A DNA stretch of 64,000 nt from a virus (IMGVR_UViG_3300020420_000671), one strand, 5' to 3'; shown: positions 28,956 through 51,479, numbered from the stretch's first letter. Translations and numbers: made by a program. Notes: a model not told the origin generated them from the sequence alone.

Positions 28956-28963
28956 TATAAATA
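28956..28963 (+). promoter_or_regulatory. T4-type late promoter heading tailoring block 1
   Basis: Exact TATAAATA, 30 nt upstream of the GT9 start, in the only intergenic gap. Confidence 0.7.
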
Positions 28964-28993
28964 TTTTCGTACAAAGAAATATTGGAGTTTAAT

Positions 28994-30061
28994 TTGTCTC
29001 GAAAAAAAGCATATTTTATGAACGGTGGAGCAGGCCGTGTAATAGCGTCTATTCCTGCCTTTGAAAAGTTATACGAAAATGATCAAGACTTTATTATTGT
29101 ATGTGAAGGAGGCATGGACTTTTATAAGGGTCATCCACAATTACATGAATTAGCATACGATCATTGGCATAAAAATTTATTTAAAGATTATATCAAAGAC
29201 AGAGATTGTATTACTCCTGAACCATATAGGGTTTGGGAATATTATAATCAACAATGTAGTTTAGCACAAGCATTTGACATAGCCATAAACAACGAAGGCA
29301 TCAGAGATTTATCTGACCCTAAAATTTATATGAACAAACATGAACTTGTTCAAGGATATAAAGTTGTTGAAGAAATAAAAGCAGTCACTGGCAAAGACAA
29401 AGTTGTAGTTTTTCAACCGTTTGGAAGAACAGCAGAGAACATGGGCGACTTTGTAATTGACGGAACATCAAGAAGTTTCCATCTTAATGACGTAATTAAA
29501 ATTTGTAAAGACCTAAGAGATGATTATGCTGTTATCATAATGAGTGAATTCCCTGTGACAGTAGAAGAAAATCCAAAAGTACCAGTAGCAGTTCCACAAA
29601 TACCTGATGTGAGAGTTTGGTCTAGTGTAATTCAAATAGCAGATCATTTTATAGGCTGTGATAGTTTAGGACAACACATGGCAAAAGCATTAGGAACGAC
29701 ATGTACAAGTGTTATTGGTAGTACATATCCTATTAACATTTCATATCCTAACAGTCCAGACTTTGATGTTATAGACTTAGGAGAAGGAAAAAGAAAATTT
29801 AGCCCAATAAGATTATCAATGGAAGACGAAATTGAAAGATACAATGACGAAGTTATGGAGTTAACTGATGAAACCTTTAAACAAATTATATCAAGTGCTC
29901 GTAAAAGGCTTGGTAAGCCTAGGACTTATACGGGAACGTACAAACCCGAACAAGGACAACAAGGAGAAGTCTGCCCAACGCATGGGGTTGTCCACAAAAA
30001 TGATGCAGGAGTAACACACGCAAATCAACCTGCCCAAATTTTAGGAAGGACTGGACAATGA
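28994..30061 (+). CDS. GT9-family (ADP-heptose heptosyltransferase-like) glycosyltransferase
   Basis: N-terminal GGAGR.I...P; C-terminal ADHFIGCDS.GQH.A.ALG...V.GST, the GT9 signature. TTG start chosen from GGAG 6 nt upstream. Confidence 0.75.
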   Translation: MSRKKAYFMNGGAGRVIASIPAFEKLYENDQDFIIVCEGGMDFYKGHPQLHELAYDHWHKNLFKDYIKDRDCITPEPYRVWEYYNQQCSLAQAFDIAINNEGIRDLSDPKIYMNKHELVQGYKVVEEIKAVTGKDKVVVFQPFGRTAENMGDFVIDGTSRSFHLNDVIKICKDLRDDYAVIIMSEFPVTVEENPKVPVAVPQIPDVRVWSSVIQIADHFIGCDSLGQHMAKALGTTCTSVIGSTYPINISYPNSPDFDVIDLGEGKRKFSPIRLSMEDEIERYNDEVMELTDETFKQIISSARKRLGKPRTYTGTYKPEQGQQGEVCPTHGVVHKNDAGVTHANQPAQILGRTGQ

Positions 30062-31881
30062 CACAATGGATAGGAGCAATCACAAGAGGTCATAATGGTG
30101 GTGCCGTGTTATTAAAAGACGGTGAAATTGTTTTTGCTATTGAAGAAGAAAGATTATCAAGAAAAAAATATGATGGTGGTCCATTTGCCGCCATGATAAA
30201 GTTCAAAGAATTTACAGATAAGTTAGATTATCTAGTGGTTGCTCATACTCAACCTTTAGAAGAATCTAGCAGAGTTGATTTTAGCGGTGGAGATATTTAC
30301 ACAGGACTAGCTAGAAAATTAGGATTAATAGATGGCAAAGATTCTGCTTATGATCAAAACTTTAAACATAGGCAAGTAATAGATTTAAGTCATATTCATC
30401 ATAAGCTACATGCCGCTTGTGCTTTTTATAGATCAGGTTTCGAATCAGCAACAGCAGTAATAGTTGACGGGGCCGGAACTTTTATTCCTATGAATATAAA
30501 TTCTGGAACTTTTAATGAAGAATTTATGACATGGGAGTGCGAAAGTGTATTTTCATGTAACTATCCAGATGACTTTAAAACATTGTATAAGCATCAAGGA
30601 GGAAATGGTCCTTATCCTGGCACACATATTACGCAAATTCCTAGTGACAGAGAAGGAGAAGAAGGATTTCATGAATTGGTGTTGGATGACTCAGCAGGAA
30701 TAGTTAAAGCCTACGAAGCAGTAACACAATATTGCGGATTTCAACCAATCGAAGCAGGAAAAACAATGGGCTTGGCTCCATATGGCAAACCAAATTCTAA
30801 TATTCCTGCTATCTATACAGATGGTTCAGGAGGAAAGTGGAGAACTGCTGATAGAAATGTTATTATTCCTACATATCCCAATGCCGCTTTAGTAAACGAC
30901 GGCAAATATGATTATTTGTATACATCAACAGACTTACAAAATAGCAAAGTTGATCTAACCACGTTAGAAAACAGAAGAGATCTTGCTTATGCTGTCCAAG
31001 ACGAATCACAACAAGAAGTTTTAAAATTAATTTTTAAAGCTGTTGAAATGACGGGAAATAAAAATGTTGTATTAAGTGGAGGATACGCACTTAACTGTGT
31101 GGCAAATTATTGGTATCTAGATAAACTTAATAAAGAAGATATAAAGTTATACGTTGAACCTGTATCAAGTGATGCTGGAACAGCTATAGGAGCCGCTTTA
31201 TTATTATATCATCAACTAACAAAAGATAAGAAAGTAAGATCATATACAGAAACAATTTATGAAGGATTCAAATATCATTTGACTCTAAATGACATCGATA
31301 ACATTGCTGAAAAATATGGAGCAAGTACAAGTGACGTTGATCATAAAAAGGTTGTTGAGATCATCCGTAACAAAAATATTGTTGCTCTATGGCAAGATAG
31401 ATCCGAAAATGGACCAAGAGCTTTGGGAAATAGAAGTTTGTTATTCGATCCTACTATTGAAGATGGTAAAGATCATGTGAACAGAGTTAAACGTAGAGAA
31501 TATTTTAGACCTTTTGCTGGAACTATAATGTTAGATCATGCTAACGATTGGTTTGATATGCGTGGTTTAGAACAATCTCCTCATATGATGTACGCAATGA
31601 ATTGTAAAGATGGCGTTGCTGAAAAAATTCCTAGTATAATTCATGTAGACGGAACCTGTAGAATACAAACTGTAACTCAAGAACAAAATAAACATTACTA
31701 TGACATCATAAAAGAGTTTTACGATCAATCCGGTGTGCCTATAATTTTCAACACAAGTTTTAATTTAGGCGGAGAACCGTTGGTAGAAACATTAGATGAT
31801 GCTGTGAGAACATTATATAACAGTGAAATTGAATATCTTTATCTACCAGAATTTGGAAAATTGGTAGAAATGAAGAATTAA
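30058..31881 (+). CDS. O-carbamoyltransferase (NodU/CmcH/TobZ family)
   Basis: EEERLSR.K, HH..HA, DGAG, GKTMGLAPYG, SGG.ALNC.AN, DAG.A.GAA, GPRALGNRS, RE..RPFA, HVDGT.R.QTV, NTSFN. Confidence 0.93.
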   Translation: MTQWIGAITRGHNGGAVLLKDGEIVFAIEEERLSRKKYDGGPFAAMIKFKEFTDKLDYLVVAHTQPLEESSRVDFSGGDIYTGLARKLGLIDGKDSAYDQNFKHRQVIDLSHIHHKLHAACAFYRSGFESATAVIVDGAGTFIPMNINSGTFNEEFMTWECESVFSCNYPDDFKTLYKHQGGNGPYPGTHITQIPSDREGEEGFHELVLDDSAGIVKAYEAVTQYCGFQPIEAGKTMGLAPYGKPNSNIPAIYTDGSGGKWRTADRNVIIPTYPNAALVNDGKYDYLYTSTDLQNSKVDLTTLENRRDLAYAVQDESQQEVLKLIFKAVEMTGNKNVVLSGGYALNCVANYWYLDKLNKEDIKLYVEPVSSDAGTAIGAALLLYHQLTKDKKVRSYTETIYEGFKYHLTLNDIDNIAEKYGASTSDVDHKKVVEIIRNKNIVALWQDRSENGPRALGNRSLLFDPTIEDGKDHVNRVKRREYFRPFAGTIMLDHANDWFDMRGLEQSPHMMYAMNCKDGVAEKIPSIIHVDGTCRIQTVTQEQNKHYYDIIKEFYDQSGVPIIFNTSFNLGGEPLVETLDDAVRTLYNSEIEYLYLPEFGKLVEMKN

Positions 31882-32492
31882 TGTTCATAGATTTATATTC
31901 AATTCCAGTTTTTGCCGAACCATTAAGCACACATGATGAAGTAAAAGAAGATTTTACTAACATAATACAAGATGATAGTAACTTTAACAAGTATCCTAGC
32001 TGGTATTGTAATGTAGACACTACTTTCGGACTTCCAGATTCAAATAAATTACCCTTTAATAACTTTATTAAAGGTGCGGTTGCTGGATTAAACACTTATC
32101 TTTCAAAGTTAGGAGTTGATCATTCAGTATCTTATGGAGTTGAATGTTGGTTAAACAGATATAGTAAAAATCAACACCAAGAATTACACAATCATGCTGG
32201 TGAAAGCGTAATAAGTTGTGCTTACATGCTTAAACTTCCTCCAGATAGCGGTAGATTTGTGTTTTATAGAAACACTTATGACTTCTTCCACGGTAGTGCT
32301 CTACCTAGTTGTAGTTCGGAACCTTTCAAATACAACAACAGGATAACTCCTCCATTGCGTGAAGGAGACATTGTATTTTTTCCAAGTGTTTTAGAACACT
32401 ATGTTACTGTGAATGAAAGTGATAAAACAAGAGCTACTATCAGTGCCAACTTTATTATCAAAGAGAGAACAGATGAAGAAAAACAAAATTAA
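31881..32492 (+). CDS. 2OG-Fe(II) oxygenase (TIGR02466-like)
   Basis: W.N.Y...H.E.HNH, IS..Y, GD.VFFPS.L.H.V, R.TISANF. Confidence 0.85.
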   Translation: MFIDLYSIPVFAEPLSTHDEVKEDFTNIIQDDSNFNKYPSWYCNVDTTFGLPDSNKLPFNNFIKGAVAGLNTYLSKLGVDHSVSYGVECWLNRYSKNQHQELHNHAGESVISCAYMLKLPPDSGRFVFYRNTYDFFHGSALPSCSSEPFKYNNRITPPLREGDIVFFPSVLEHYVTVNESDKTRATISANFIIKERTDEEKQN

Positions 32493-33180
32493 TGAAGAAG
32501 AAGTTTTTGAAATCAATAAAGACTACTCTGTAACTATAAAAAAATTAGGAAGAAAACAGACAGTAGTTGTAGTTGTTGATGATTTTTACAAAAATCCTAT
32601 GAGCGTAAGACAATTAGCTTTGGATATACCAGCTTCATCAAATCAACGTATTAGAGGAAATAACCCTGCTTGGAGAATTAACGCTTTTTACGTTTTAGAT
32701 TCAATGTCTTGGATATTTGATCAGCTATGTAGACAGTATTACCCTAACATAATGTCTAATTGGTCAGCAAACATGATGGCAGAAAGTTTTATGAGGGCTA
32801 CTTTTATGGTAAACGTAATGCAATCCGAAAATTTACCACCTATGTCTCCGCACATGGACAATCCTAGTGGTCTAAATTTTGCTAGTACCATTTATTTGAA
32901 TACAGAAAACGAAAGTAATGGTGGAACTTCCTTTTATGAGTTTGCCGGAAAGGAGTCTATACAAGATCCTGATCAGTATAACTACTATGACAAACAAAAA
33001 ACGACTCCTATAACAAAATATATCACAGAATCAATAGGAGATTGGGAAATGACTGGTATTGTTCCCATGAAATTTAATAGAATGGTGTTGTATCCGCAGA
33101 ACATGTTACATACAGCATACGTTAAACCAGGAATGTTTTATGAGGATTTATATAGACTGAACCAACAGTTCTTTATTTAG
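32473..33180 (+). CDS. 2OG-Fe(II) oxygenase-like protein (DUF6445-like)
   Basis: VVDDFY.NP..VR..AL, PHMD (HxD), ..YLN, GGTSFY, M.FNR.VLY....LH. Start set at ATG 32473. Confidence 0.75.
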   Translation: MKKNKINEEEVFEINKDYSVTIKKLGRKQTVVVVVDDFYKNPMSVRQLALDIPASSNQRIRGNNPAWRINAFYVLDSMSWIFDQLCRQYYPNIMSNWSANMMAESFMRATFMVNVMQSENLPPMSPHMDNPSGLNFASTIYLNTENESNGGTSFYEFAGKESIQDPDQYNYYDKQKTTPITKYITESIGDWEMTGIVPMKFNRMVLYPQNMLHTAYVKPGMFYEDLYRLNQQFFI

Positions 33181-33188
33181 GAGGTAAG

Positions 33189-33764
33189 ATGGAAGGTGAT
33201 TTTAACGGTATAGAAGAATACAAACATGTGTTCCCTTTAGACTATTGTAAAAAGTTAATTGAAACATTTGAACAACGTGCTTCTATGCAATTAACTGAAC
33301 ATCAAACAGGATTTAAAAATCAAGATGAAAGAATATTCATGGATCTAGCTAACCATAACAATATGTTTCATGTAGACGCAGACCTGTGTAAGTTTTTCTA
33401 TCAAACTGTAATGACAACGTATGAAGAGAAATATAGATCAAAATATGATAGTTTAGCCGCGGTTGTACAACATTCTCCAAAAGGAATGAGCATACAAAAG
33501 ACAAGACCACATCAAGGATACCATGCTTGGCATTGTGAAAACGCAGATTTATGTACTTCTTCGAGAGTAATGGCATACACTTTGTATCTAAACGCTGTAG
33601 AAGAAGGTGGAGAAACAGAATTTTTATACCAAGGCGTGAAAATAAAACCAGAACCTGGTAAGTTAGCATTCTTTCCAGCTTATTATACTCATCCGCATAG
33701 GGGAAATCCTATTTACAAAGGAATAAAGTACATAGTATCTGGATGGTACACTTTAGACGAATAG
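33189..33764 (+). CDS. 2OG-Fe(II) oxygenase (prolyl-4-hydroxylase-like)
   Basis: YHAWH.E, YTLYLN...GGETEF, P.PG....FP..YTH.HRG, KYI.SGW. Confidence 0.88.
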   Translation: MEGDFNGIEEYKHVFPLDYCKKLIETFEQRASMQLTEHQTGFKNQDERIFMDLANHNNMFHVDADLCKFFYQTVMTTYEEKYRSKYDSLAAVVQHSPKGMSIQKTRPHQGYHAWHCENADLCTSSRVMAYTLYLNAVEEGGETEFLYQGVKIKPEPGKLAFFPAYYTHPHRGNPIYKGIKYIVSGWYTLDE

Positions 33765-33772
33765 GAGTAACG

Positions 33773-34138
33773 ATGAAATTATTAATAGCAGTACTAGCAG
33801 TATTTACAGCAGTAGCAGTATTTACAGACACAAGAGCAAAAGCAGGAGAATGGAATGAAAAACCTGTCATGTGCGGAGAGGAAACAGAAGTTTTTGGACT
33901 TATGGGTTCAAAAGATGAACAATTATTGTTTTCAGGCGACATGTTTGCTAAAGTAAAAGATCCTGATGAAGCAAATGGATTGTCACCAACACCTGCTATT
34001 TTGCCTTTGGCCGTTTATGTTAATTTTAAAACAGGAACTTTTACTATTGTAGAGCGTCATGGAGATCCTTACAATGTATATTGTATTATTGCCATAGGAG
34101 CAGGTATGAAACTTCCTAATTATGGAGAGATGGAGTGA
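33773..34138 (+). CDS. Small exported protein with a predicted signal peptide
   Basis: MK + hydrophobic stretch + AKA cleavage-like site; SD AGGAG before ATG 33773; two Cys in the mature part. Confidence 0.55.
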   Translation: MKLLIAVLAVFTAVAVFTDTRAKAGEWNEKPVMCGEETEVFGLMGSKDEQLLFSGDMFAKVKDPDEANGLSPTPAILPLAVYVNFKTGTFTIVERHGDPYNVYCIIAIGAGMKLPNYGEME

Positions 34139-35592
34139 AAATTTGTGTTGTAGGTGGTGGTACAGCTGGATTTGTTGCCGCACTTATACTTAAAAAAAGT
34201 TATCCGCAGTATACGGTTGACGTAATTCGAAGCACCAAGATTGGAACTATAGGTGTTGGTGAAGGAAGCACTGAACATTGGCAAGCCTTTATGGATTTCT
34301 GTAACATCACTGCTGGAGAATTAATAAAAGAAACAGATGCAACATTTAAATCAGGTATTATGTTTCAAAATTGGAGTAAAAATGATTTTTTACAAAGTGT
34401 TCATGATCCTTTTGTAGGTGAACACCTTGGATTACCTTTGACTTATGCTAAACTTTTATCAGATAACGTTCATCCTAAAGAACTTGTAGGAGCATACACA
34501 TGGAAGAGTCATCAACCATTCAACAAATATATGGACGAAAGGCCTAATGATACAGGAGTAAGCCAATATCATTTCAATACCAGCAAGTTAAATGACTTTC
34601 TAACAAAAAAAGCAATACAATATGGTTGCCAAGTAGTAGATGATGAAATTACTGCTATCAATATGCCAGACGGCAAAAATATTACCAGCTTGAAAGGAGA
34701 AAAGTCTGATTATCATTATGACTTTTATATTGATTCTACAGGATTCAAACGTTTACTTATAGAAAAGATGGGAGCCAAATGGCAAAGTTATTCTAAATAT
34801 TTAAAAATGAAAGAAGCTATTGTATTTCCAACTGAAGAAGAAGATGAAATACCTGTTTGGACAGTTGCTAGGGCTATGAACAGTGGATGGCTGTTTAGAA
34901 TTCCTGTTTGGGGTCGCAAAGGCAACGGTTATATATATGACAGTGATTTTATTACTCCGGAAGAAGCTAAAATAGAAGCAGAAGCATACCTAGGACACGA
35001 AGTGTCTGTGGCTAAGAATATAAAATTTGATCCAGGAGCATTAGATAAGCCTTGGATTAACAATGTTTGTGCTATAGGATTGTCGGCTAGCTTCGTAGAA
35101 CCACTTGAGGCCAGCAGTATAGGCACAAGTATTAATCAAAGTTTTTTATTAGCACAACGTATTGTAAATTATAATATGCCTACTATTCAAAGATACAACG
35201 AAGAAGTCGAATCGATTATGAATAATATAAGAGACTTTATTTGTTTACACTATATTACTGATAAAGATGATACAGAATTTTGGAAACACATAAAAGAAAC
35301 TGAAATGCCTGATAGCCTAGCAAATAATTTAGACATGTGGCGAACAAGATTACCAGTAGCAGATGATTTTACAGATAAAACCAAAAAAGTTTTGTTCAAC
35401 GAATACAATTATATATTAGTAATGTATGGTCTTGGATTGATTGACACACAAGCTGTAAAAAAACAATATGAAAGTATTCCGCCTGAAGCAAAAGAATTTG
35501 TAAATAGACAAATCACTGCTAAAAAAGAAAATGACAGGTTAAAATGTGTTCCGCATAAACTGATGTTAGACTTAATACGGAGATTATCGTGA
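34135..35592 (+). CDS. Flavin-dependent halogenase (tryptophan halogenase/PrnA family), copy 1
   Basis: VVGGGTAG, GVGEGS, ATFKSGI (catalytic Lys position), IDSTGF, W.FRIP (variant of WxWxIP), FVEPLEASSI. Confidence 0.88.
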   Translation: MKICVVGGGTAGFVAALILKKSYPQYTVDVIRSTKIGTIGVGEGSTEHWQAFMDFCNITAGELIKETDATFKSGIMFQNWSKNDFLQSVHDPFVGEHLGLPLTYAKLLSDNVHPKELVGAYTWKSHQPFNKYMDERPNDTGVSQYHFNTSKLNDFLTKKAIQYGCQVVDDEITAINMPDGKNITSLKGEKSDYHYDFYIDSTGFKRLLIEKMGAKWQSYSKYLKMKEAIVFPTEEEDEIPVWTVARAMNSGWLFRIPVWGRKGNGYIYDSDFITPEEAKIEAEAYLGHEVSVAKNIKFDPGALDKPWINNVCAIGLSASFVEPLEASSIGTSINQSFLLAQRIVNYNMPTIQRYNEEVESIMNNIRDFICLHYITDKDDTEFWKHIKETEMPDSLANNLDMWRTRLPVADDFTDKTKKVLFNEYNYILVMYGLGLIDTQAVKKQYESIPPEAKEFVNRQITAKKENDRLKCVPHKLMLDLIRRLS

Positions 35593-36452
35593 GAATATTT
35601 GCGTTTGGTTGTAGCCTAACACAATATTTTTATCCTACTTGGGCAGATATACTCATTCATCATTACAAAACCAAAGGTTACGAAGGTTCAAACTGGGCAA
35701 AAAGCGGAGCAGGTAACATGTATATCAACATGCGCCTATGGGAAGCTAACACCATACACAAATTTAACAAAGACGATGTAATTCTTTTACAATGGTCAAG
35801 TATGTACAGAGAAGATAGATACCATATGGGCAAAGGATGGTGGACACCTGGAAATTTTAGTAGACAAACAATTAACAGTGAAAATAGTTTTATGTTGAAT
35901 AATTATTTTTATCAAAACACTTGGACCTGGGCAGATATAATGCATTGTACGATGCGTGATTGTGCTACAATAAGTGCTACTCACAAAGCATTAGACACTA
36001 TAGGTTGTAAAGTTTACTCAACTTATTTTAGAGATCCATTTGAGGGTTGGGAAGATGCTCCTAAGCACTTCAATCAAACTAATCCCAAACTTGAACTTGA
36101 GGATGTGGGAGCGGTTTTAGAATCTTACAGAGAAGATATTGCTACTACCTGTCCTCCAATTTTAAACGCACTTGATTTTGGAACCGATAAAGATTTTTTT
36201 GTAACGAGACCAAAAAGTGTTCCTAGCTTGAAGGAAGAACACCAGCACATGAATATACATGAACTACACCCATTGACTCACGAAGCCGCTCAATTTGTCG
36301 AAAAACATATAGAGCCTTTATCTACAGAAACAAAACAATTCGTAGATGATTGGGAGAAAAAATTAACAGCTAATGATCCTATTATACTTGAAGAACTAGA
36401 ATGGCATAATAAAGATAAAATTGGCTGGTCAGATGATAGATGGAGACCGTAA
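35589..36452 (+). CDS. SGNH/GDSL-like hydrolase or acyltransferase
   Basis: N-terminal FGCS (GDS-like), N.A.SGAG, LQWS, late HP motif; GTG start overlapping the halogenase stop. Confidence 0.5.
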   Translation: MRIFAFGCSLTQYFYPTWADILIHHYKTKGYEGSNWAKSGAGNMYINMRLWEANTIHKFNKDDVILLQWSSMYREDRYHMGKGWWTPGNFSRQTINSENSFMLNNYFYQNTWTWADIMHCTMRDCATISATHKALDTIGCKVYSTYFRDPFEGWEDAPKHFNQTNPKLELEDVGAVLESYREDIATTCPPILNALDFGTDKDFFVTRPKSVPSLKEEHQHMNIHELHPLTHEAAQFVEKHIEPLSTETKQFVDDWEKKLTANDPIILEELEWHNKDKIGWSDDRWRP

Positions 36453-37015: not shown

Positions 37016-37071
37016 AATATTAAAGCTCTACATATCAGTGCAAAACGATAAATACAGTATGGAGCAGGTAA

Positions 37072-37587
37072 ATGAATAAACTTCTGACAAACTTTTTTAC
37101 AAAAGGGCAAAATAATTCAATATTATTACCTAGTAGATCTAACTTTAGCTTTAGAGGAAGCTGGGTAGCAGTACAGAGAAATAACACTATTTTAGATAAA
37201 TTTCACCTAGGTGATTTTAGTAGTGCTATGTATCAAGTAGCAGTTGAGTTTGACAGTAATGAAAAAGAAACAATGCAGATTTCTGTGGTTGCTAGACCAG
37301 ACAGAGCTGTTGTTTCCATATTTGGTAGGGCAACAATTAACCAAGAATTAATAACTGTTACAGCGGCAGTAGACGCTAGTAGCGTATATCTATATGCTAG
37401 TCCGAAGTCAAATACGTATTTAGGCAGTAAAGTTACATTTCATGCTACCTATGCTCAGGCAATACATCAGTTAACTCCACCAGCCATAGTCGCAGACACA
37501 TCAACGACGGAGGCATCTGGAATAAATACTTTTGATGCTACAACTAGCACATTTGATAAAACTAATGTAACATTTGATAGGACGTAA
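37072..37587 (+). CDS. Virion structural protein
   Basis: Late box GATAAATA at 37047-37054; C-terminal TFD..T.TFD.T..TFD repeat. Confidence 0.5.
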   Translation: MNKLLTNFFTKGQNNSILLPSRSNFSFRGSWVAVQRNNTILDKFHLGDFSSAMYQVAVEFDSNEKETMQISVVARPDRAVVSIFGRATINQELITVTAAVDASSVYLYASPKSNTYLGSKVTFHATYAQAIHQLTPPAIVADTSTTEASGINTFDATTSTFDKTNVTFDRT

Positions 37588-42600: not shown

Positions 42601-45600
42601 CATATTCTATAGCAATGAATATTGCTGGTACAGGATACCAAGTAGGTAACGAAATAACCATAGTAGGTACAGATTTAGGTGGTGCGGCACCAACAAACAA
42701 TGCTACACTTATAGTGTCAAGTATTGATGGTTCAGGAGGAGTAAACAACGCAACAATCACAGGTACAGCAATAGGTGGAGGAACACTTAATTTGGTAGGT
42801 GGTGTTACGCTTTCAGACTTTACTACAGCAGGTATACCATCTAGTTCAAGTGTAAACTTTGAAGCATTGTCAACTATCGAAGTAACATATCCATACGCAC
42901 ACGGAATAGTGCCTGGAGATACATTTATTGTTGATGTAAATTCAGATGATGGTGGAACAAATAATCACAGCTTGGCGGCAGGATCATTTATAGCAACTCA
43001 AGTTCCTACACAGAAAAAAATTAGATATAACACAAGAGCTCCAGGATCAATAGCAGAATTTGATGCTACTTCTACAGAAGATAGAATACAAGGTAACGTT
43101 TACCTACGTCCAGATAGTTTCTTTGTACACAGACCATATGATGGAGGTGTACAGCTAGGAACAGGTGGACCACAACACGGTGCTCAAGCAATTAGACAAA
43201 GTAAAAAATATATTAGATATCAATCAGGTAAAGGTATTATGTATACCACTGGTGCTTTGTTTGCTCCATCTTATGACGTCAGAAGCATTACAGCTTCTAG
43301 TATAAACATAGGTGCAACATTGACAATCATTACAGATGATAACGATCACGGTGCTCAGGTAGGTGGTAGAATAAGACTTATTGGAGTTGAAACAAAAGGA
43401 TACAACGGCGAATATGTTATCACGCAAATTGTTGATGAAAGAACATTACGTTGCTTGTCTACTAGAAGATTAGGATCAACAAATGCTGTGCTTGGATTTG
43501 GAGCACAGATGACAGTTGTTGGTTGGCATGGTGCTACTGTGCGTTCAGGAGTCTTTGATGATCAGAATGGAATTTATTGGGAATATGATGGAACCAATGT
43601 CAGTGTAGCTCAGAGAACTTCAACAAGACAGATAGCAGGTACTGGTTCGGTTACTCCAGATAGTAACTTGATAACAGGTAACAACACAAGATTTAGAGAT
43701 CAACTTAAAGCAGGTGACAGAATTGTAGTAAAAGGAATGACACATGTTGTATCTCATGTAAATTCACAAACTGAAATCACAGTAACTCCGGACTACAGAG
43801 GTGTAAACGTTTCACAGGCATGTAAAATTAATCTAATAAGTGATAAAAGAGTGCTACAAAATGAATGGAATAGAGATAAACTAGACGGTACAGGCGGTAG
43901 TGGTTATAACATGGATGTAAGATATATGCAGATGATTGGTATCCAATACAGTTGGTATGGTGCTGGTTTCATTGACTGGATGGTCAGAGGTGCCGATGGT
44001 AACTTTGTATACTGTCACAGAATGCGTAATTCAAACGTAAACACTGAAGCATTTATGAGATCAGGTAACTTACCTGTGCGTTATGAAGTGACCAATGAAG
44101 GATCTATGACATCACTTGCGGCAGATATTAATCCTACAGTTACAACGATACCGTTGGTTGAATCTAAGTTTTTCCCAAGTTCAGGAACAGTATTCATCGA
44201 CAACGAATTAATAAGTTATACAACCATAGATCATACTACAAAGTCATTGACAAACTGTACAAGAGGTACAACACTACAAAATTTCCAAGCAGGTGCTACT
44301 AGGCAGTATTCAGCAGGTGGAGCAGACGATCACTCAGCTAGAACAGGTGTAATTTTAATTAGTAACACAATTACTCCACTTATATCACACTGGGGTTCAG
44401 CGTTTGTTACAGATGGTAACTTTGATGAAGATAGAGGATATATCTTCTCATATACAGAACCAGGAATCAATGTTACTACTACAAGAGGTACAGCTTTCTT
44501 GATAAGACTAGCACCAAGTGTATCCAACGCTATTGTTGGTGACTTGGGTGATAGAGAACTACTTAACAGAGCTCAGTTATTGATGCAAGGACTTGAGTTA
44601 ACATCAGATGGTGTTGATCCTGCTAACAATGCCAACATAATTACAGGTGGTATTGTTGTTGAAGGTATTCTAAATCCACAGAACTATCCACTCAACCCAA
44701 ATGATATTGGTTGGACTGGATTGTCAGGACTAGCACAAGGTGGTCAGCCTAGCTTTGCTCAGGTAGCATCAGGTGCTTCAGTTAACTGGAACTCAGGTGA
44801 TACGGCTACCTACTCAACAGTAGCAGTTATGGCTAAGGTTACAACAACAGCACAGCTGATGCCATGGTGGTCATTTAGAACAAATAGAAGCTACGCATAC
44901 TTTACAGCAGACAGTTGGGAAAATTCTAACTTATCAGTTGGTGATATTGTTAACGCAGACGGTGGCGGCAATGAATATTTCCCACAAGGAACTTCAATTC
45001 AAACAGTTGTTGACCAAAGTATTTACGGAAGATATCTTGTTTACTTCTCACAAAATAGTAACTCAAATAGTTCTAACGGTGCTACGCAGACATTTGAAAA
45101 AGGCGGAGATGTTGTTAACAGTACACAAGCATTGTTCTTAAAAAACGCATGGGACGCAGGAGGAGCCAAGTCAGGTACTGAGATTGGTGATTCTGGAGGT
45201 GCTCCGACAGACCAAGGTGATATTACAATGCCAGCAGGAACATACGTTTCAAACGTAGAAGGACCATTGCTATTTGGTGATCAAAGTGGATCAGGTATTG
45301 AATATTACAGAGTAACATTTAATAACGCATTTAACGGAACACTTCAGCCAGGAGACTTGTTTAACTTTACTTTCCAACAACCACCTTACGCACAGCCAGG
45401 TGAAACAGTATTTTCATTTATTGCTACACCAGGTGAAAGATCAACACTTGATCTAATGCTGTTGAAAGAATTAACAAATACTACACTAGGTGGTCGAGGT
45501 ACATTCCCGAATGGTCCAGATGTTTTAGCAATTAACATCTATAAAACAACTGGTGCCGCTACAACAGCTAATTTAATTATTAAGTGGGGAGAGGCTCAGG

Positions 45601-45605
45601 CGTAG
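39642..45605 (+). CDS. Giant (1987 aa) virion structural protein, probably baseplate/fibre
   Basis: G/T/S/N-rich; five internal repeats; DADFEYG.QPTKW and RQSK.Y.RYQSGKG motifs. Confidence 0.6.
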   Translation: MAKKKIVEYRFYPGIGINDSVYPNAYALITANKNFIQKEVTAWIARQVQLNATGFVGYTYDAAKCERDTGYNVDAWAHDLTYGGNQETTRIANTYWEGDVAQLDGDRQAEILAKGFTRDLINNHIITNSPQGTPYQTAVTQVTTANTGESAASTRIQILAQIVIDVITTGTSALPTFERKGLGHIRFPGNYDTSDLLIVTNTTKATVIYNFTDPLKGGKVTREDDVTPRDSGGYVIKYDTTDANSDADDDFPKYLQTTDSIAVLDLNFNTSSMATSDELQIFIDSPEQTIRPYDFGTDAIERIRVAQPLSMLDADFEYGLQPTKWSAIGMMRGYPSIYELPGTDTQVLSVVTDASSGTAGIGASRITVTTIGAHGFEPGTPITIKALEDAVGGAARAEGSFIIDDVPTPNTFRFFAKSKVGTTNGQVLSTTYTQLRQGAFYTGASVGQPQFIVASNGTNGTMTLALAAQTGENRLAFTGDVPEIGAPIVNAAFPTGTQVTGINSTPGGTPLSMNLTQDINPGNTSFTVSSTTNIAQGQAANNGTGDAIFVNSIVGNTVNMSGSFTSTIARNTQTYTGVSGTITAPVGTNAQFDINRSGVNYSITTVSQIGSGYKAGDVIKITGNNLGGFTPANDAEIVIATVNGSGGVLTATISGTALSGSVTYQDVASTYNHGSGTWGASTVDINYENDAYSSISIASPNDTTGYAVNDGLRIVGTSVLGGSGQDGSQNDNGNDIVAKVATIGAGGSISSISIVNDAARTGTAPDSTVNYSFGGAGGASFTGGSGSSFEFQIDKQVGATTSYGIMLSNGGSSYNTADVIVCAGTDLGGASPANDLYLRVVAVDGNGGITDVRLEGQDISSAPVPFNGGVFSGKTLTNFNGSGAVFDVTNNGSTYSVAVDTPGTNYIDGQEFTVAGTALGGSSPANDATISISATNSTGASNQGIIQTVSISGSAPSLPTDFSNVAGANQAHAGASGTFDITRTQGAYSIAMNIAGTGYQVGNEITIVGTDLGGAAPTNNATLIVSSIDGSGGVNNATITGTAIGGGTLNLVGGVTLSDFTTAGIPSSSSVNFEALSTIEVTYPYAHGIVPGDTFIVDVNSDDGGTNNHSLAAGSFIATQVPTQKKIRYNTRAPGSIAEFDATSTEDRIQGNVYLRPDSFFVHRPYDGGVQLGTGGPQHGAQAIRQSKKYIRYQSGKGIMYTTGALFAPSYDVRSITASSINIGATLTIITDDNDHGAQVGGRIRLIGVETKGYNGEYVITQIVDERTLRCLSTRRLGSTNAVLGFGAQMTVVGWHGATVRSGVFDDQNGIYWEYDGTNVSVAQRTSTRQIAGTGSVTPDSNLITGNNTRFRDQLKAGDRIVVKGMTHVVSHVNSQTEITVTPDYRGVNVSQACKINLISDKRVLQNEWNRDKLDGTGGSGYNMDVRYMQMIGIQYSWYGAGFIDWMVRGADGNFVYCHRMRNSNVNTEAFMRSGNLPVRYEVTNEGSMTSLAADINPTVTTIPLVESKFFPSSGTVFIDNELISYTTIDHTTKSLTNCTRGTTLQNFQAGATRQYSAGGADDHSARTGVILISNTITPLISHWGSAFVTDGNFDEDRGYIFSYTEPGINVTTTRGTAFLIRLAPSVSNAIVGDLGDRELLNRAQLLMQGLELTSDGVDPANNANIITGGIVVEGILNPQNYPLNPNDIGWTGLSGLAQGGQPSFAQVASGASVNWNSGDTATYSTVAVMAKVTTTAQLMPWWSFRTNRSYAYFTADSWENSNLSVGDIVNADGGGNEYFPQGTSIQTVVDQSIYGRYLVYFSQNSNSNSSNGATQTFEKGGDVVNSTQALFLKNAWDAGGAKSGTEIGDSGGAPTDQGDITMPAGTYVSNVEGPLLFGDQSGSGIEYYRVTFNNAFNGTLQPGDLFNFTFQQPPYAQPGETVFSFIATPGERSTLDLMLLKELTNTTLGGRGTFPNGPDVLAINIYKTTGAATTANLIIKWGEAQA
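41400..42770 (+). repeat. Five ~90-100-aa repeats in the giant protein
   Basis: G..F.I.....YS....G.GY..GD.I.I.G..LGG..PAND..I.V....G.G.I; boundaries approximate. Confidence 0.65.
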
Positions 45606-45990
45606 GCTCAGGCTTATCGCTTTGGCTATCACCTGGAAACACTCTGTAATTATCTTCTACAGAATCAGCAGTACTTACTTCAGTTATAGAACTACCTCTT
45701 TCCATACAAACTAATTGATGAGGTTGTAATGGAGGATTTCTCCACGTATCTCCTGCCTTTAATTCTTGTTCGTGTAGTTCAGCAGTTTGCGTATCAATCC
45801 ATCTTAACAAGAATCTACCAGCATTGACAAACCAAGATTCGTCTTTTTCTCTGTGAAAGTGCATTGAAAACTTTGCTCCGAGCTTTTCAAATACCATAAT
45901 TTTACCGCAGTATTTTTCATTAGTTGCCCAGATTAGTTCATAACCCCAACCTTTTTCAACTCTACCTTCAAGTCTTTTTGTCATGTACAA
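45580..45990 (-). CDS. Cupin-fold protein, sugar-isomerase-like
   Basis: K.WG.E..W, SMHFH..KDESW (cupin motif 1), GD.W..PP...H (motif 2); overlaps the hldD stop. Confidence 0.75.
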   Translation of the reverse strand: MYMTKRLEGRVEKGWGYELIWATNEKYCGKIMVFEKLGAKFSMHFHREKDESWFVNAGRFLLRWIDTQTAELHEQELKAGDTWRNPPLQPHQLVCMERGSSITEVSTADSVEDNYRVFPGDSQSDKPEPTPEPLPT

Positions 45991-46816
45991 TATCCTTTAG
46001 ATATTCATCTATAGTAATCCAATGCCTTATTGGTATAGTATTATGTATCTTAGTATTATCAGCACAAGTGTATTCCTGATACTGTCCTTTTAGGTGATCA
46101 GGCATATCTATGTACTCTATTTCAGCATCTTGTAATTTAGCAACTAATTTGGCAACAGTTTCAATATCTACAGGCTTACTAGTACCCAAATTGAATATAC
46201 CACTTATATCTTTTGACATCATTTCTTCGTGTATACGCACTACATCGTATACTGACACTAAATCTCTTTTGTATAGATGACTGTCTTTAAATAATTTAAT
46301 TTTTCCGGTCAGTGATGCTTGTTCTTGAAACTTGCTTACCATGCTTTGTTGATCTTTCTTATGTCCTTCTCCTGGACCATATACATTAAAGTATCTAAAA
46401 GATTGAACATTCATTTTAAATTGTGTAATATCATTGTCCAGTAAAAACTTATCAACTAGATATTTGCTCCAAGCATATGGTGTTTGCGGATAAACAGGAT
46501 CTGTTTCGCTAAACATTTCTTTCTTCAATGGTCCATATACTGCCGCTGTACTTGCTAATTGTATATTTGTTCCATAATGATCACATATTTGTAGTAGTCT
46601 CATGGTAAATTCGTAGTTGTGTCTCCAAACTTTATCTACATCTCTTTCTGTGGTATCCGAAATAGCTCCACAGTGAACTACCCAATCATACTGTTCAACA
46701 GCAGGAACTACGTTTTCTACCCAATCATAACCTTCTACTTCATGTCCTTTATGTAAAAGATATTGTGACATATGGCTTCCTATAAAGCCTTTGTGTCCTG
46801 TAACTAATACTTTCAT
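45968..46816 (-). CDS. hldD: ADP-L-glycero-D-manno-heptose 6-epimerase (extended SDR)
   Basis: VTG..GFIG, H.GAISDTTE.D, ASTAAVYG, YAWSK (YxxxK), RYFNVYGP.E.HK, RD..SV.DV. Confidence 0.88.
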   Translation of the reverse strand: MKVLVTGHKGFIGSHMSQYLLHKGHEVEGYDWVENVVPAVEQYDWVVHCGAISDTTERDVDKVWRHNYEFTMRLLQICDHYGTNIQLASTAAVYGPLKKEMFSETDPVYPQTPYAWSKYLVDKFLLDNDITQFKMNVQSFRYFNVYGPGEGHKKDQQSMVSKFQEQASLTGKIKLFKDSHLYKRDLVSVYDVVRIHEEMMSKDISGIFNLGTSKPVDIETVAKLVAKLQDAEIEYIDMPDHLKGQYQEYTCADNTKIHNTIPIRHWITIDEYLKDIVHDKKT

Positions 46817-48063
46817 TGTGTCATTTTTCCTATTATGTTTGTTGTACTATGTCCTTCTACTGTAGGAAATATAACCACTTCAGCCAAATGATTACCAACC
46901 ACTGTCTCTGGAATATAATCACCGCCTTTTACAATAATGTCTGGTTGTACCTTTTCCATAGTTTGTAAAGGAGTATCCTCATCAAAAATTACTACTTCGT
47001 CAATGAAACCAAGTTCCTCAAGGGCTTGTTTTCTAGTAAATTCATCATTGATAGGTCTTGTATCGCCTTTAATTCTTTTAACACTCGTATCACTGTTTAT
47101 GCCTACAACTAATTTATTACCAAGAGTTTTGGCATGTTTCAATAACTTTAAATGTCCAACGTGTAGTATATCAAATACACCATTTGTAAAAACTATTCCT
47201 GTGCTTAAATCTTTTGGAGTAATCACAGCTACGCCACGTTTTTCAACTATTCTAGCCGCGGCAAAACAGGCTAGTTTACACGATTCGAATATATCCAATC
47301 CTCTTTCTATTCCATAGGCAATGACAGATAACACAGTATCACCTGCTCCGGTTACATCAGCAACTTCTTTTACAGGTTCCATAAAATTTTTATATTGTCC
47401 TTGTTCATTTATCACATGTATACCATTGGCACCATCTGTAACGACCAACCAGTTCCATTTATGTTTACGCATATTCTCTAAAGCAGATTCTATTGTAAAT
47501 TCTCCAAACCATGATATGTATTCTTTCATATTTGGCTTTACTAAAAAAGCACCTGCGTAGATTTCTGGACTTTGTTTAGGATCTACTAGAACCTTACAAC
47601 CTTTTGAAACTAATTCTTGAACTGTATTCTCTTGAACAATTCCTTTGTTGTAATCACTTACACAAATTAAAGTGTTAGAAGTTGCGTCAATTAGCAATCT
47701 TTCATACGCTTCTGTACCTTTATAAACTTCTTCGTTGTCCCAACGTACAATGTGTTGGCCGTTTTGTCCAACTAATCTAGTTTTGGTTGTTGTAACCAAA
47801 TGATCTTTTACAACTCTAGCTTCTAAATCTGTATCTTCTAACAGTTCAAGTAGTTTATATCCCTCTTTGTCTTGTCCAACACTACCAAACAGCTTTACCT
47901 GTCCATTGATAGATTGGATATTAAGAGCCAAATTACCTGCTCCGCCTATGCTGAAATGTTGTGATTCTTCTAATAAGACTGGTACAGGAGCTTCGGGGCT
48001 TATCCTATCTGCGTTACCAACTATCCATCGGTCCAACATGATATCACCGTATACTATTATCAC
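46813..48063 (-). CDS. hldE: Bifunctional heptose-7-phosphate kinase / heptose-1-phosphate adenylyltransferase
   Basis: GDIMLD.W..G...RISPEAPVPV, GGAGN.A, DVTGAGDTV (PfkB domain); NGVFDILH.GH, G.NSD.S..R.KG..RP, KGGDY, STT (nucleotidyltransferase domain). Confidence 0.95.
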   Translation of the reverse strand: MIIVYGDIMLDRWIVGNADRISPEAPVPVLLEESQHFSIGGAGNLALNIQSINGQVKLFGSVGQDKEGYKLLELLEDTDLEARVVKDHLVTTTKTRLVGQNGQHIVRWDNEEVYKGTEAYERLLIDATSNTLICVSDYNKGIVQENTVQELVSKGCKVLVDPKQSPEIYAGAFLVKPNMKEYISWFGEFTIESALENMRKHKWNWLVVTDGANGIHVINEQGQYKNFMEPVKEVADVTGAGDTVLSVIAYGIERGLDIFESCKLACFAAARIVEKRGVAVITPKDLSTGIVFTNGVFDILHVGHLKLLKHAKTLGNKLVVGINSDTSVKRIKGDTRPINDEFTRKQALEELGFIDEVVIFDEDTPLQTMEKVQPDIIVKGGDYIPETVVGNHLAEVVIFPTVEGHSTTNIIGKMTQ

Positions 48064-49541
48064 TGATGATTCCTAATGTACTCTGAATTATCTGGCAAGT
48101 ACGTAGTTTTAGCATCAAATTCTTTTACGTGTTGAACGTATGCCTTATCTGATAACAGCGTATCATTGTTGTAAAATAATTCTTTTCTACAAACTTCGTC
48201 TGATAATTTTCCTGTGCCTGCTAGTACATAACTCCATAAAGGCCATCCTGCTGATCCTTCTTGTCTTGGAAACATTGATTGATTGGGTGTTCTGTGTTTA
48301 CTCATTTCATGTATATCTCTAACGAAAGGTGTTATTGTTTTACCACTGTCAATATATCGCCAAAATTCTGTATCTTTTCTACCACAAGTGTAATGAGCAA
48401 CTAAGAAGTCTTTGAGTATATCATATAAATGACCATTTGTATTATTGTATTCAGCCACTTGTCCTATGTTACATGTCTGATCTACATCATTACCTAAACA
48501 CCCGTAAACAAAATGTTTCAGTTGGAATATGGTTGTATGTATACTTGTAGCTTCTAAAGGTTCAGCAAAAGCCGCACACAATCCAACTGATAAACAGTTT
48601 TTTATCCATAATGTTTCTTGTCGGCCGCTTTCAAATTTTAGCAATCTAATAGGTTCTACTTTCTTTCCTATGGTTTGTTCTAGTTCGACTTGTGCTTGTT
48701 CAGGAGTAACGAAATCATCACAGAACACATAACCGCAACCTCTTCTGTTCAATGTAGGAATTTGCCAACACCAGCCGTTCTTTTGTGCCCAAGCATTTGT
48801 TACAGGTTCAATTTTTTCATCTTCATCATATGGTAATAAAAAAGGTAAAGCACTATTTACAGGTAAATTTTCTTTGTAACTTTTCCATTTACTACCTACT
48901 GCTTTCATTAAAATTTGAGCAAATCCACTAGCATCAATAAACATATCTCCTGGTTGTGTTTGACCATTGCTTAACTTTAATTCTTTTATATAACCACTTT
49001 CAGGATGTAATACTACTTCGTTTACTTCCGAATCTATATGTTTTACAGTATCACAAAGTTTTTTGAAATATTTTCCTACCTTGTGTGCGTCAAAGTGATA
49101 AGCGTGATTACCGTTATGATCAGGAAAACTATTTTTATTATGATGTATCTTGTAACCTAGTTCCGTAGAAATGTGTAGTAATTCTTTGTCTCGATATCCT
49201 AAAGCATTTAAAAAAACCAAATCCTGTGAATCATAACTTGTAGGAGACCCATCAATAGGACCATAGTAATGGCTTACTGTATCCGGATTCCAACCTATGT
49301 GTTTTATTCCTAATTTAATTGTAGCGTCACATTCTTCTATAAAGTCTTTTTCAACACAACCTAAGTTATGCATCTCGTTTTGAACTATGTTCGTTAATGA
49401 ACCTGTACTGCCTTCACCAGCTCCTATAATTCCAATTTTACTACTTTCAATACAAGTTACTGAATGCTCTGGACGTATTTTTGAAATCATCAATGCGGCC
49501 AACCAACCAGCAGTTCCGCCTCCTACAATAACTATTTTCAT
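48060..49541 (-). CDS. Flavin-dependent halogenase, copy 2
   Basis: IVGGGTAGW, GAGEGS, ATIKLGI, FIDASGF, GWCWQIP, FAEPLEATSI. Confidence 0.9.
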   Translation of the reverse strand: MKIVIVGGGTAGWLAALMISKIRPEHSVTCIESSKIGIIGAGEGSTGSLTNIVQNEMHNLGCVEKDFIEECDATIKLGIKHIGWNPDTVSHYYGPIDGSPTSYDSQDLVFLNALGYRDKELLHISTELGYKIHHNKNSFPDHNGNHAYHFDAHKVGKYFKKLCDTVKHIDSEVNEVVLHPESGYIKELKLSNGQTQPGDMFIDASGFAQILMKAVGSKWKSYKENLPVNSALPFLLPYDEDEKIEPVTNAWAQKNGWCWQIPTLNRRGCGYVFCDDFVTPEQAQVELEQTIGKKVEPIRLLKFESGRQETLWIKNCLSVGLCAAFAEPLEATSIHTTIFQLKHFVYGCLGNDVDQTCNIGQVAEYNNTNGHLYDILKDFLVAHYTCGRKDTEFWRYIDSGKTITPFVRDIHEMSKHRTPNQSMFPRQEGSAGWPLWSYVLAGTGKLSDEVCRKELFYNNDTLLSDKAYVQHVKEFDAKTTYLPDNSEYIRNHQ

Positions 49542-51043
49542 TAAAAGTCTCCAGTACTATGACATCTTACATACCAATCATAACCCATATTGGTTGTTTC
49601 TATAGCATCTTTATGTGAGATGCTTAATTTATTTCTTATTTCTTCTGATCCCATAAATTCTTGCATAGCAAAATCTATCTGCATTGGACTTAACCTGTTT
49701 AGGTCAACGTTTGTTGGATAGCCCATTTGTATTAACCATAATTGCCAATTCTGTGGATGAAAGAGTGTTTTACTTGACACATCAGAATAAAAAGTTCTTT
49801 GCGGATCTTTTAACCAATCTTCATAAAATAAATGTCTTTGAGATTTTACGTGTTTTTGTTTAACGTAATTCCAAAACTTTGTGTCCCATTTACTATCAGC
49901 ATAATGGCTACCAACGAAATCAACAGCATCACCATACCATGACATCATTGTTTTGTTATACATGTCTATTGAATTTTCTGTATAGGCGTATTGCGGAATA
50001 TGTAAAGCAAGTTCTTGTACACCATATGTCATACTGGCTAATCCTGTTGACTCTAGTGGTTCAATAAATCCTCCACTTAACCCAATTGATACAACATTCT
50101 TTTCCCAAAAGTTTTCACTATAGTACGGTGTCCAATCGATTAATTTCAAATCTTCAGGCTTTATTCTATTGTTCCAATGTTCACAAAAATATTTTTTAGC
50201 TTCTTCTGGGTCAGTAATATTACTATTGAATACCATACCAGAACCAATTCTTGATTGTGTTGGTATTTTCCAAATCCATCCATGGTCCACAGCAGGGCAA
50301 CTTACGTATGGCACACACTCTTTTTCAAAATCTTCATATGGCACATGTCCTGCTACTGCGGCGTTGGTGAATAGTCTACCTGTATCCAGTAACTCCACCT
50401 TTTTCTGGTCTTTTAACAGCGATAAGAAGCCCGTACAGTCCAGGTAAAAGTCTGACTGGTGTGTTGTACCATTCTTTAGTTCAAGGCTGGTTATATAGCC
50501 ATCTAGGTCTTTATTTACTTTGACTACATCGCTCTTGATGATGTTAACTGTGTTAGTGCAAATGTTTTGTAACTCAGTTACAAGTTTGCCAGCATCTATA
50601 TGATATGCTAACGTTTCAAAAGCATTGAACATGTCGACCTTGTTCATCATAGTATTTTGATAACTAGGAACACTATATTCTCTAAAATCTAAATCTTGTT
50701 TTTGTGCCCAGATATCATATTGTGTACATTTCAAATCAAAATATGATCTATTTAAAAAGAATGGGTGATAAATTTTTTTACCTGGCTCTACCCAGTTTGG
50801 AAAATCAATACCGGCCTTGTATGTAGCATCAACGTTTTGGAACCATTGAGGCAAATTAATTCCACATTGTCGTAGGAATGAAGGAAAAGTTAACACGGTT
50901 GCTTCACCAACTCCTATTGGATTACCTACTTCTTTATCAATCACCGTTAAGGGCATGTCCCAAAAATTATTTTGTATATAAGTTGCGGCTAGCCATGCCG
51001 CTGATCCACCGCCAACGATAGTGATGCTTTTAATTTTTCTCAT
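49541..51043 (-). CDS. Flavin-dependent halogenase, copy 3
   Basis: IVGGGSAAW, GVGEAT, ATYKAGI, LDCTGF, GWIWKIP, FIEPLESTGL. Confidence 0.9.
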   Translation of the reverse strand: MRKIKSITIVGGGSAAWLAATYIQNNFWDMPLTVIDKEVGNPIGVGEATVLTFPSFLRQCGINLPQWFQNVDATYKAGIDFPNWVEPGKKIYHPFFLNRSYFDLKCTQYDIWAQKQDLDFREYSVPSYQNTMMNKVDMFNAFETLAYHIDAGKLVTELQNICTNTVNIIKSDVVKVNKDLDGYITSLELKNGTTHQSDFYLDCTGFLSLLKDQKKVELLDTGRLFTNAAVAGHVPYEDFEKECVPYVSCPAVDHGWIWKIPTQSRIGSGMVFNSNITDPEEAKKYFCEHWNNRIKPEDLKLIDWTPYYSENFWEKNVVSIGLSGGFIEPLESTGLASMTYGVQELALHIPQYAYTENSIDMYNKTMMSWYGDAVDFVGSHYADSKWDTKFWNYVKQKHVKSQRHLFYEDWLKDPQRTFYSDVSSKTLFHPQNWQLWLIQMGYPTNVDLNRLSPMQIDFAMQEFMGSEEIRNKLSISHKDAIETTNMGYDWYVRCHSTGDF

Positions 51044-51479
51044 TCTCTAAATATCCTATAAGGTCAAAAACAGTTTTTAGTTTAGTTTGGTTAGTTTTGT
51101 TTTGTAGTGTATTACGTAAACCCATGTGTAACGGTTTTGGCCATTTGCCAAAACTTACCCAACTATATCCATCATGTTCTTCGTTTAGATTAGGAATAAA
51201 TTCATTTTTTGTTACACACAAATATGTATGGAAACTAAATTTTTCATCGCTACTTACAAATGTTTCTAGTGGTATGGTTTTCAAAATTTCTGGTATCTGT
51301 CCAATTTCTTCAGTTATTTCTCTTTGTAAAGCGGGCCACGGATACTCATTTTTTCCATTGGTTCCGCCTACTAAACCCCAGACGTTTTTTTGTTTACTTT
51401 GTGTTCTATGTAGTAGTAGAAACCTTTTGGTCTTTAAAGCATAGAATAAGGCTCCACTACATGTGATTTCACTATTCAT
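51030..51479 (-). CDS. NUDIX hydrolase
   Basis: Nudix box GTNGKNE-x7-REITEEIG; LNEEH.GY.W. Start set at ATG 51479. Confidence 0.88.
   Translation of the reverse strand: MNSEITCSGALFYALKTKRFLLLHRTQSKQKNVWGLVGGTNGKNEYPWPALQREITEEIGQIPEILKTIPLETFVSSDEKFSFHTYLCVTKNEFIPNLNEEHDGYSWVSFGKWPKPLHMGLRNTLQNKTNQTKLKTVFDLIGYLENEKN

Follow-up and report, generated by a model that had tools for sequence, protein, structure and literature searches.

The DNA stretch IMGVR_UViG_3300020420_000671, 64,000 nucleotides (nt) long and hereafter called the window, derives from an uncultured marine T4-like jumbo phage and contains two blocks of enzyme genes (block 1 and block 2, Table 1) that, in our reading, represent two late transcription units encoding a system for glycan assembly that is linked to the tail-fibre module. 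ADP-L-glycero-D-manno-heptose would be the product of HldE, HldD and a phosphatase of the GmhB type, with a cupin supplying the first isomerase step, which is otherwise missing; an enzyme of the GT9 glycosyltransferase fold would transfer the heptose, and a NodU/TobZ-type enzyme would O-carbamoylate it. The acceptor would be a co-made fibre-module protein, with the three Cys/Gly-rich tip paralogues encoded just upstream as the likeliest candidates, and progeny virions would bear carbamoyl-heptose on their host-recognition parts; the halogenases, oxygenases, SGNH-like protein and NUDIX hydrolase of the blocks would be lineage-specific additions. Virion decoration by a late-made heptose, transferred to and carbamoylated on a fibre-module protein, is the best supported of the readings considered, and we put its probability at about 45%. 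It builds on gene identities, folds, operon layout, motif placement and synteny, from which we infer the late timing, the enzyme specificities, the role of the cupin and, above all, the acceptor.

We favour decoration of the fibres mainly because of gene context. Eighty viral loci were gathered through the transferase and scored against all window genes. The transferase-carbamoyltransferase pair was present in every locus with enough sequence and lay always within the fibre module. In close relatives (82-99% transferase identity) block 1 was complete and kept its gene order; distant relatives (47-63%) retained the pair alone, directly between fibre genes and the genes for the 171-amino acid (aa) and 1987-aa structural proteins. 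The GmhB, cupin, HldD, HldE and NUDIX genes either adjoined the pair (L064-L066 and L069) or were found across the big structural gene. Beside the pair, 8 of 10 distant loci carried three tandem genes for proteins of 250-410 aa with 8-12% Cys and 15-22% Gly, and a ninth locus carried one; these are homologues of the three tip paralogues of the window, and similar triplets adjoin the pair in S-SSM7 and S-CAM1. More distant members of the transferase family (phrog_8954) stood beside fibre genes in an N4-like Vibrio podophage, where the homologue lies between a "tail fiber" gene and that of a 41-Cys tail protein, and in Aeromonas myophage HJ05, with no heptose genes near the transferase in either phage. 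The original prediction, an earlier reading of this DNA, had proposed looking for co-occurrence of these genes with the fibre paralogues across related genomes. The link to fibre genes proved tight in the 80 loci, in three cultured cyanophages and, for the transferase alone, in the Vibrio and Aeromonas phages.

The transferase had been called a GT9 enzyme, a call that was upheld by predicted fold but not by sequence. PF01075 (GT9) matched at E 0.18 along just 40 residues, with 11.6 bits where the cut-off is 22, and Pfam, NCBIfam and PDB phmmer searches with the transferase sequence gave nothing significant. We aligned 32 homologues and predicted a structure (predicted local distance difference test, pLDDT, 78; predicted template modelling score, pTM, 0.80) whose best 30 PDB fold matches were all of GT9 type, with E values from 7.7e-10 (Veillonella 3tov) to 5e-6; they included E. 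coli WaaC, WaaF and the protein heptosyltransferase TibC, and a fold search of Swiss-Prot models returned the same GT9 families. Profile alignments with E. coli WaaC and WaaF were short and weak and were used for motif positions only. The invariant residues D227, S228, G230 and H232 (D-S-x-G-x-H) aligned with the WaaF donor motif DSGLMH, in a weak alignment (E 0.19). The N-terminus bears a GGAGR signature, which appears likewise as GGxGR in the 25%-identical Vibrio phage homologue. Family phrog_8954 is confined to phages, and none of its 2825 relatives has a Pfam domain. We read the transferase as a phage-specific offshoot of the GT9 fold in which the donor site would be kept and the known catalytic base would not. 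Its putative donor, ADP-heptose, is suggested by the linkage to the HldE, HldD and GmhB genes. Its likely start is a TTG at 28994 with GGAG 7 nt upstream; the open reading frame (ORF) listing places the start 12 nt earlier, at 28982.

The enzymes that would make and modify the sugar were recognised by sequence. The carbamoyltransferase matched PF02543 (Carbam_trans_N) with 101 bits and PF16861 (Carbam_trans_C) with 189 bits, against cut-offs of 24 and 27. HldE matched PRK11316 (4.7e-103) together with TIGR02198 and TIGR02199 in NCBIfam, and the best NCBIfam matches of the phosphatase and of HldD were PRK08942 (4.8e-41) and TIGR02197 (1.3e-64), all of them under the NCBIfam equivalog cut-offs. 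No SIS-type GmhA isomerase was found in the window, and PF13580 was not detected in five related records, one of which is rated complete. The cupin, with its HxHxxxE metal site, always accompanies HldD and HldE; its orthologues gave sub-threshold matches to D-lyxose isomerase (6/7) and mannose-6-phosphate isomerase (3/7), and its atlas neighbours bear the same two isomerase families. It is probably the isomerase of sedoheptulose-7-phosphate that replaces GmhA, and we treat it as a candidate for that role. The cyanophage "phosphoheptose isomerase" of T4-GC 306 (about 111 aa; S-SSM7_130 at L081:28708-29043 and P-SSM2_311 at L082:16024-16368) has a HAD DxDxT motif at its start. Both of these proteins gave weak HAD matches only and no SIS match. 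T4-GC 306 looks like a small phosphatase, and so these cyanophages would likewise lack GmhA.

Late expression of both blocks is well supported by inference from the placement of a promoter motif. The original prediction noted an exact TATAAATA before block 1. That sequence is indeed at 28956, as the single copy in the window against 8.6 expected, but the working motif is the 7-mer ATAAATA, which equals the core of the T4 late promoter. There are 17 copies of ATAAATA in the window against 29.6 expected; 15 are on the plus strand, and 12 of these precede an ORF start by 10-40 nt, a spacing that 2.5% of positions would satisfy (binomial P about 2e-17). The genes behind the copies are structural genes. 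The depletion of TATAAATA and ATAAATA outside promoter positions suggests that stray late promoters are selected against. Block 1 starts behind one copy, the next (37048) comes past the last block 1 gene, and none occurs inside either block; the chaperone-like gene before block 1 has its own copy at 28108. The ATAAATATTT preceding the transferase was conserved in 34 of the 41 distinct regions upstream of its orthologues, often past a terminator, while the flanks diverged. Upstream of block 2 the sole minus-strand copy (54170-54164) forms a divergent pair with the gp13 promoter. Because the block 2 genes overlap or abut, the heptose genes would share one operon with gp15. Only 8 nt separate the end of the minus-strand motif from the probable ATG (54155) of the gp14-position gene, which would leave the mRNA nearly leaderless, and the divergent motifs at 54164-54183 form an inverted repeat.

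Expression of the blocks during assembly, as originally proposed, is supported by the late-type promoter motif of block 1 and by the predicted co-transcription of block 2 with neck genes. The two sigma70-like sites reported at 3519 and 54971 were confirmed (11/12 matches each). They precede a non-coding RNA region and a deoxynucleoside monophosphate (dNMP) kinase gene, not structural genes, and no comparable site was found in the short gaps preceding either block, as had been stated. The first of them, at 3519-3547, and a capsid-gene terminator lie upstream of a manA RNA motif (Rfam RF01745) at 3561-3768 (59 bits, gathering score 55.2, E 1.8e-12), which is itself upstream of a late motif at 3818. 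Contigs from four seawater metatranscriptome runs gave pieces 90-99% similar over the transferase, carbamoyltransferase, GmhB, cupin/HldD and structural genes; such contigs show neither timing, strand nor transcript starts and may reflect DNA carry-over, and they were not used as support.

The three tip paralogues, each with 29-31 Cys, 49-55 Gly and 8-10 Trp, show the pattern of glycine-rich fibre-tip domains, and are the most likely candidate acceptors. The gene between them and block 1 had been called a fibre chaperone, and the call holds. In a complex prediction of the transferase with tip paralogue 1 the median score was 0.22 against a mark of 0.32, which speaks neither for nor against binding. 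An N-L-S sequon in the tip proteins was rejected as an acceptor site, as it was not kept past about 35% identity. The 171-aa protein encoded just past block 1 (37072-37587) has a Ser/Thr-rich tail with three TFD repeats that is kept in close relatives only; this tail was likewise rejected as an acceptor, not being present in distant core-bearing relatives.

Several observations weigh against decoration of the fibres. No acceptor was identified, and the members of the tip family share no conserved Ser/Thr acceptor motif. At the position of the WaaC catalytic Asp13 the transferase has an invariant Arg19 (GAGR as opposed to SMGD; the alignment is weak, E 0.08), and thus its chemistry or acceptor may differ from those of any known GT9 enzyme. 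LPS (lipopolysaccharide) enzymes are at least as strong structural relatives of the model as the protein heptosyltransferase TibC. The timing is deduced from a motif, and late expression would also be compatible with masking of receptors on lysing cells. Finally, the cyanophage homologues were described as "LPS genes", with their function, or a role as "stuffer DNA", left open (PMC3037559).

The remaining enzymes of the blocks fit the proposed pathway less readily. The three halogenases matched PF04820 with 293-315 bits, and all three have the catalytic Lys (DATxKxGI) and Glu (EPLE). The canonical GxGxxG and the canonical WxWxIP are each present in two of the three, halogenase 1 having GGGTAG and the variant WLFRIP. 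They are 25-33% identical to one another and match PrnA, RebH and the cyanophage protein VirX1. The three oxygenase-like proteins show HxD/E...H patterns. The 287-aa protein, originally called SGNH-like, had no sequence match but has a weak, if consistent, predicted fold of the SGNH/GDSL type that would support the call: nearly all its fold matches were SGNH proteins (PDB 1.4e-3; AFDB 1.9e-5; template modelling scores 0.35-0.5), and Ser9, Gly40, Asn43 and His227, residues assigned by eye, are invariant. A 131-aa protein gene (33743-34138), a block 1 member missing from the original list, had no family match and was found in some close relatives only. Halogenases, DUF6445 and the SGNH-like gene were restricted to loci of at least 82% transferase identity, apart from a partial SGNH-like match in L077, and most oxygenases were confined to the close lineage. 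Because of this patchy distribution it is doubtful that the halogenases, oxygenases, SGNH-like protein and NUDIX hydrolase share a chemistry or belong with the core in one pathway. The single pathway originally proposed is thus retained for its logic of donor, transferase and carbamoyltransferase but not for the accessory enzymes.

Table 1. Features of the two blocks and their surroundings in the window
Feature	Position	Strand	Remarks
Fibre-tip paralogues, three in tandem	25566-28103	+	279, 278 and 279 aa; phrog_4205
Tail-fibre assembly chaperone-like gene	28134-28925	+	PF16778, 31.2 bits, above cut-off; phrog_9740/4912
Late-type promoter motif (T)ATAAATA	28956-28963	+	heads block 1
Block 1	28994-37015	+	transferase to GmhB-type phosphatase, tightly packed
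GT9-fold glycosyltransferase	28994-30061	+	355 aa; phrog_8954, T4-GC 302; predicted fold
NodU/TobZ-type O-carbamoyltransferase	30058-31881	+	PF02543 and PF16861; T4-GC 303
2OG-FeII_Oxy_5 oxygenase-like gene	31881-32492	+	family match
DUF6445 oxygenase-like gene	32413-33180	+	HxD...H pattern; PHROGs label "minor coat protein"
2OG-FeII_Oxy_3 oxygenase-like gene	33189-33764	+	family match
131-aa protein	33743-34138	+	N-terminal hydrophobic segment, signal-peptide-like
Flavin-dependent halogenase 1 (Trp_halogenase)	34135-35592	+	315 bits
SGNH/GDSL-like fold protein	35589-36452	+	287 aa; predicted fold
GmhB-type HAD-IIIA phosphatase	36440-37015	+	DxDGT motif
Next late motif	37048-37054	+	end of block 1 unit, start of fibre/baseplate unit
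Block 2	51479-45580	-	NUDIX to cupin, behind gp14-position gene and gp15; operon read from 54155 down
Cupin, metal-binding	45580-45990	-	T4-GC 307, phrog_7851, label "cysteine dioxygenase"
HldD-like ADP-heptose 6-epimerase	45968-46816	-	best match TIGR02197
HldE, bifunctional heptose-7-phosphate kinase/heptose-1-phosphate adenylyltransferase	46813-48063	-	PfkB and CTP_transf_like
Two further flavin-dependent halogenases	48060-51043	-	Trp_halogenase
NUDIX hydrolase	51030-51479	-	REITEEIG box
gp15 tail-sheath stabiliser (PF16724) and gp14-position structural gene	51493-54155	-	first genes of minus-strand operon
Divergent late-motif pair TATTTAT-6 nt-ATAAATA	54164-54183	both	heads minus-strand operon

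The window as a whole comes from a divergent T4-like myophage and is its structural region, with genes for a prohead protease, major capsid protein, baseplate wedge, giant fibre proteins, gp13/gp15, sheath and tube. All the genes that had been named in the two blocks were found in their places, and block 2 is, as described, downstream of gp14 and gp15 on the same strand, which is the minus strand. A search with S-SSM7 gp14 gave no match in the window, so the label gp14 is positional only; the 500-aa gp15 has its nearest counterparts in the jumbo phages PA5oct and Atu_ph07, at 31% along the full length. The fibre/baseplate unit that begins after 37048 consists of the 171-aa gene, a gp9-like gene, a 183-aa gene and the 1987-aa structural gene, the last of which converges on the cupin gene with a 26-nt overlap (45580-45605) and with no terminator-like hairpin seen between them. 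The giant fibre proteins (1859 and 1615 aa; 14260-24723) contain 5-6 CBM_5_12 modules each (E about 1e-43), which suggests that they may bind polysaccharide. A near-identity DNA search with both blocks against 50,697 phage records gave no matches, indicating that the phage has no close sequenced isolate. Related records reach 262-365 kilobases (kb), with CheckV completeness of 73% and 100%. The complete genome (364 kb) is a distant relative (53% transferase identity), and the closest large relative, 262 kb at 73% completeness, indicates a jumbo genome of about 360 kb. A cyanophage identity was rejected, as psbA was not found in five related records.

Remodelling of the host envelope, in which ADP-heptose and the GT9-like enzyme would alter the host LPS core or other glycans of the cell surface at a late stage of infection and so could block adsorption of progeny or competitors to infected cells and debris, is in our estimate unlikely, but, GT9 being an LPS-core family, it has to be taken seriously as a rival. 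The fold matches to WaaC, WaaF and OpsX are equal to or better than that to TibC, 7-O-carbamoyl-heptose is a known feature of the Pseudomonas LPS core, and the signal-peptide-like N-terminus of the 131-aa protein points the same way. It is also the traditional reading, T4-GC 304-308 having been filed as LPS genes by Sullivan et al. 2010 (PMC3037559). Set against this, the transferase belongs to a phage-only family that lacks the WaaC catalytic Asp and has fibre genes as neighbours in three or more unrelated groups of phages, and a late motif or a neck-gene operon would be odd timing for rebuilding a cell close to lysis. We consider it improbable that the blocks are mosaic cargo in which the core (transferase, carbamoyltransferase, heptose genes and cupin) forms one system and the halogenases, oxygenases, SGNH-like and NUDIX genes accumulated independently where the fibre and neck modules meet, at a site that tolerates insertions. 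The narrow distribution of the halogenases, DUF6445 and the SGNH-like gene is what such a history would leave; in P-SSM2 about 60 kb separate the halogenase from the cassette, PA5oct-like jumbo phages have a MutT/NUDIX gene next after gp15 as the window has its NUDIX gene, and the low identity among the halogenases suggests separate acquisitions. However, the close lineage has a fixed gene order with overlapping genes and no internal promoter motif, and the S-SSM7 cassette itself includes a halogenase and oxygenases.

A soluble halogenated, glycosylated and carbamoylated metabolite would account for an enzyme mix resembling a natural-product cluster (Trp halogenase, glycosyltransferase, NovN/TobZ-like carbamoyltransferase and 2-oxoglutarate (2OG) oxygenases). 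The catalytic Lys and Glu of free-tryptophan halogenases occur in each of the three enzymes here, and ADP-heptose feeds heptose-containing antibiotics. We regard such a product as very unlikely: a scaffold-forming enzyme is not present, most lineages have the core pair without halogenases and always amid fibre genes, and the genes are under late structural-gene control. The fullest version of virion decoration, in which the phage would tailor its own tips by atypical GT9-fold heptosylation, carbamoylation and lineage-specific halogenation or hydroxylation of the tips or the glycan, with a GmhA-independent donor made by way of the cupin isomerase, is doubtful as a whole; if true, it would describe the first heptosylated, possibly halogenated, virion.

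If the fibre tips do carry the glycan, abundant ocean phages would chemically edit their host-recognition proteins, with effects on host range, protease or grazer resistance and adsorption. Such a finding would also assign a role to genes that occur in thousands of marine phage contigs and have been labelled "LPS genes" or "stuffer DNA" since 2005-2010, define a phage-only GT9-like branch with altered catalytic residues, and provide a use for viral halogenases; a host-envelope target would make it an ordinary auxiliary-gene story. We found no publication in the literature searched that proposed or tested heptosylation of fibres. The novelty is nonetheless lower than the original prediction implied, the core having been published in 2005-2010 as the cyanophage "LPS gene" set.

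Compared with the GT9 LPS heptosyltransferases WaaC and WaaF (PDB 2gt1, 1psw and 3tov), the phage transferase shares the GT-B fold, the best structural match and the C-terminal donor motif; it differs in being about 12% identical, in not matching the Pfam model, in the Arg at the Asp13 position and in its phage-only family. TibC/Aah (BAHT), which act on the adhesins TibA and AIDA-I, offer a precedent for a GT9-like fold that puts ADP-heptose on protein and is encoded beside its repetitive adhesin substrate, and TibC was among the top fold matches. In contrast to TibC, the phage enzyme shows no sign of the extra domain and has a shorter aligned part; its putative substrates are Cys/Gly-rich tips rather than beta-helix autotransporters, and transfer to protein is here only putative. 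The carbamoyltransferase has both Pfam domains in common with NodU, CmcH and TobZ, whereas the score of its best NCBIfam match, NodU (127 bits), is far under the equivalog cut-off of 1000. The bacterial ADP-L-glycero-beta-D-manno-heptose pathway (GmhA, HldE, GmhB and HldD) is represented by homologues of HldE, GmhB and HldD scoring under equivalog cut-offs, and the cupin accompanies the pathway in place of an SIS-type GmhA. The halogenases share family and catalytic Lys and Glu with VirX1 (PDB 6qgm), PrnA and RebH, but occur here as three divergent copies in one phage, one without WxWxIP and one with a variant GxGxxG.

The closest known counterpart is the cyanophage cassette T4-GC 302-308 (PSSM2_307-313 in P-SSM2, SSSM7_120-133 in S-SSM7 and SXBG_00222-216 in S-CAM1), which comprises a hypothetical protein, a Nol-like carbamoyltransferase, a split HldE, the "phosphoheptose isomerase", a "cysteine dioxygenase" cupin and an epimerase. 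Such LPS genes co-occur in phages isolated far apart (PMC3037559). Transferase homologues in S-SSM7, S-CAM1/3 and P-SSM2/5 are 44-59% identical to that of the window, and the transferase (59% identity), the carbamoyltransferase (64%, to S-SSM7_121), the HldE parts, the cupin and the epimerase are common to both. In S-SSM7, P-SSM2 and S-CAM1 the position is also the same, after small Cys/Gly-rich genes and among fibre genes. The window version differs in being split into two convergent late units that flank the fibre/baseplate block, in its fused HldE, and in the addition of three halogenases, an SGNH-like gene and a full-size GmhB. The gene set represents an extended and split form, specific to this lineage, of a cassette that was described in 2005-2010.

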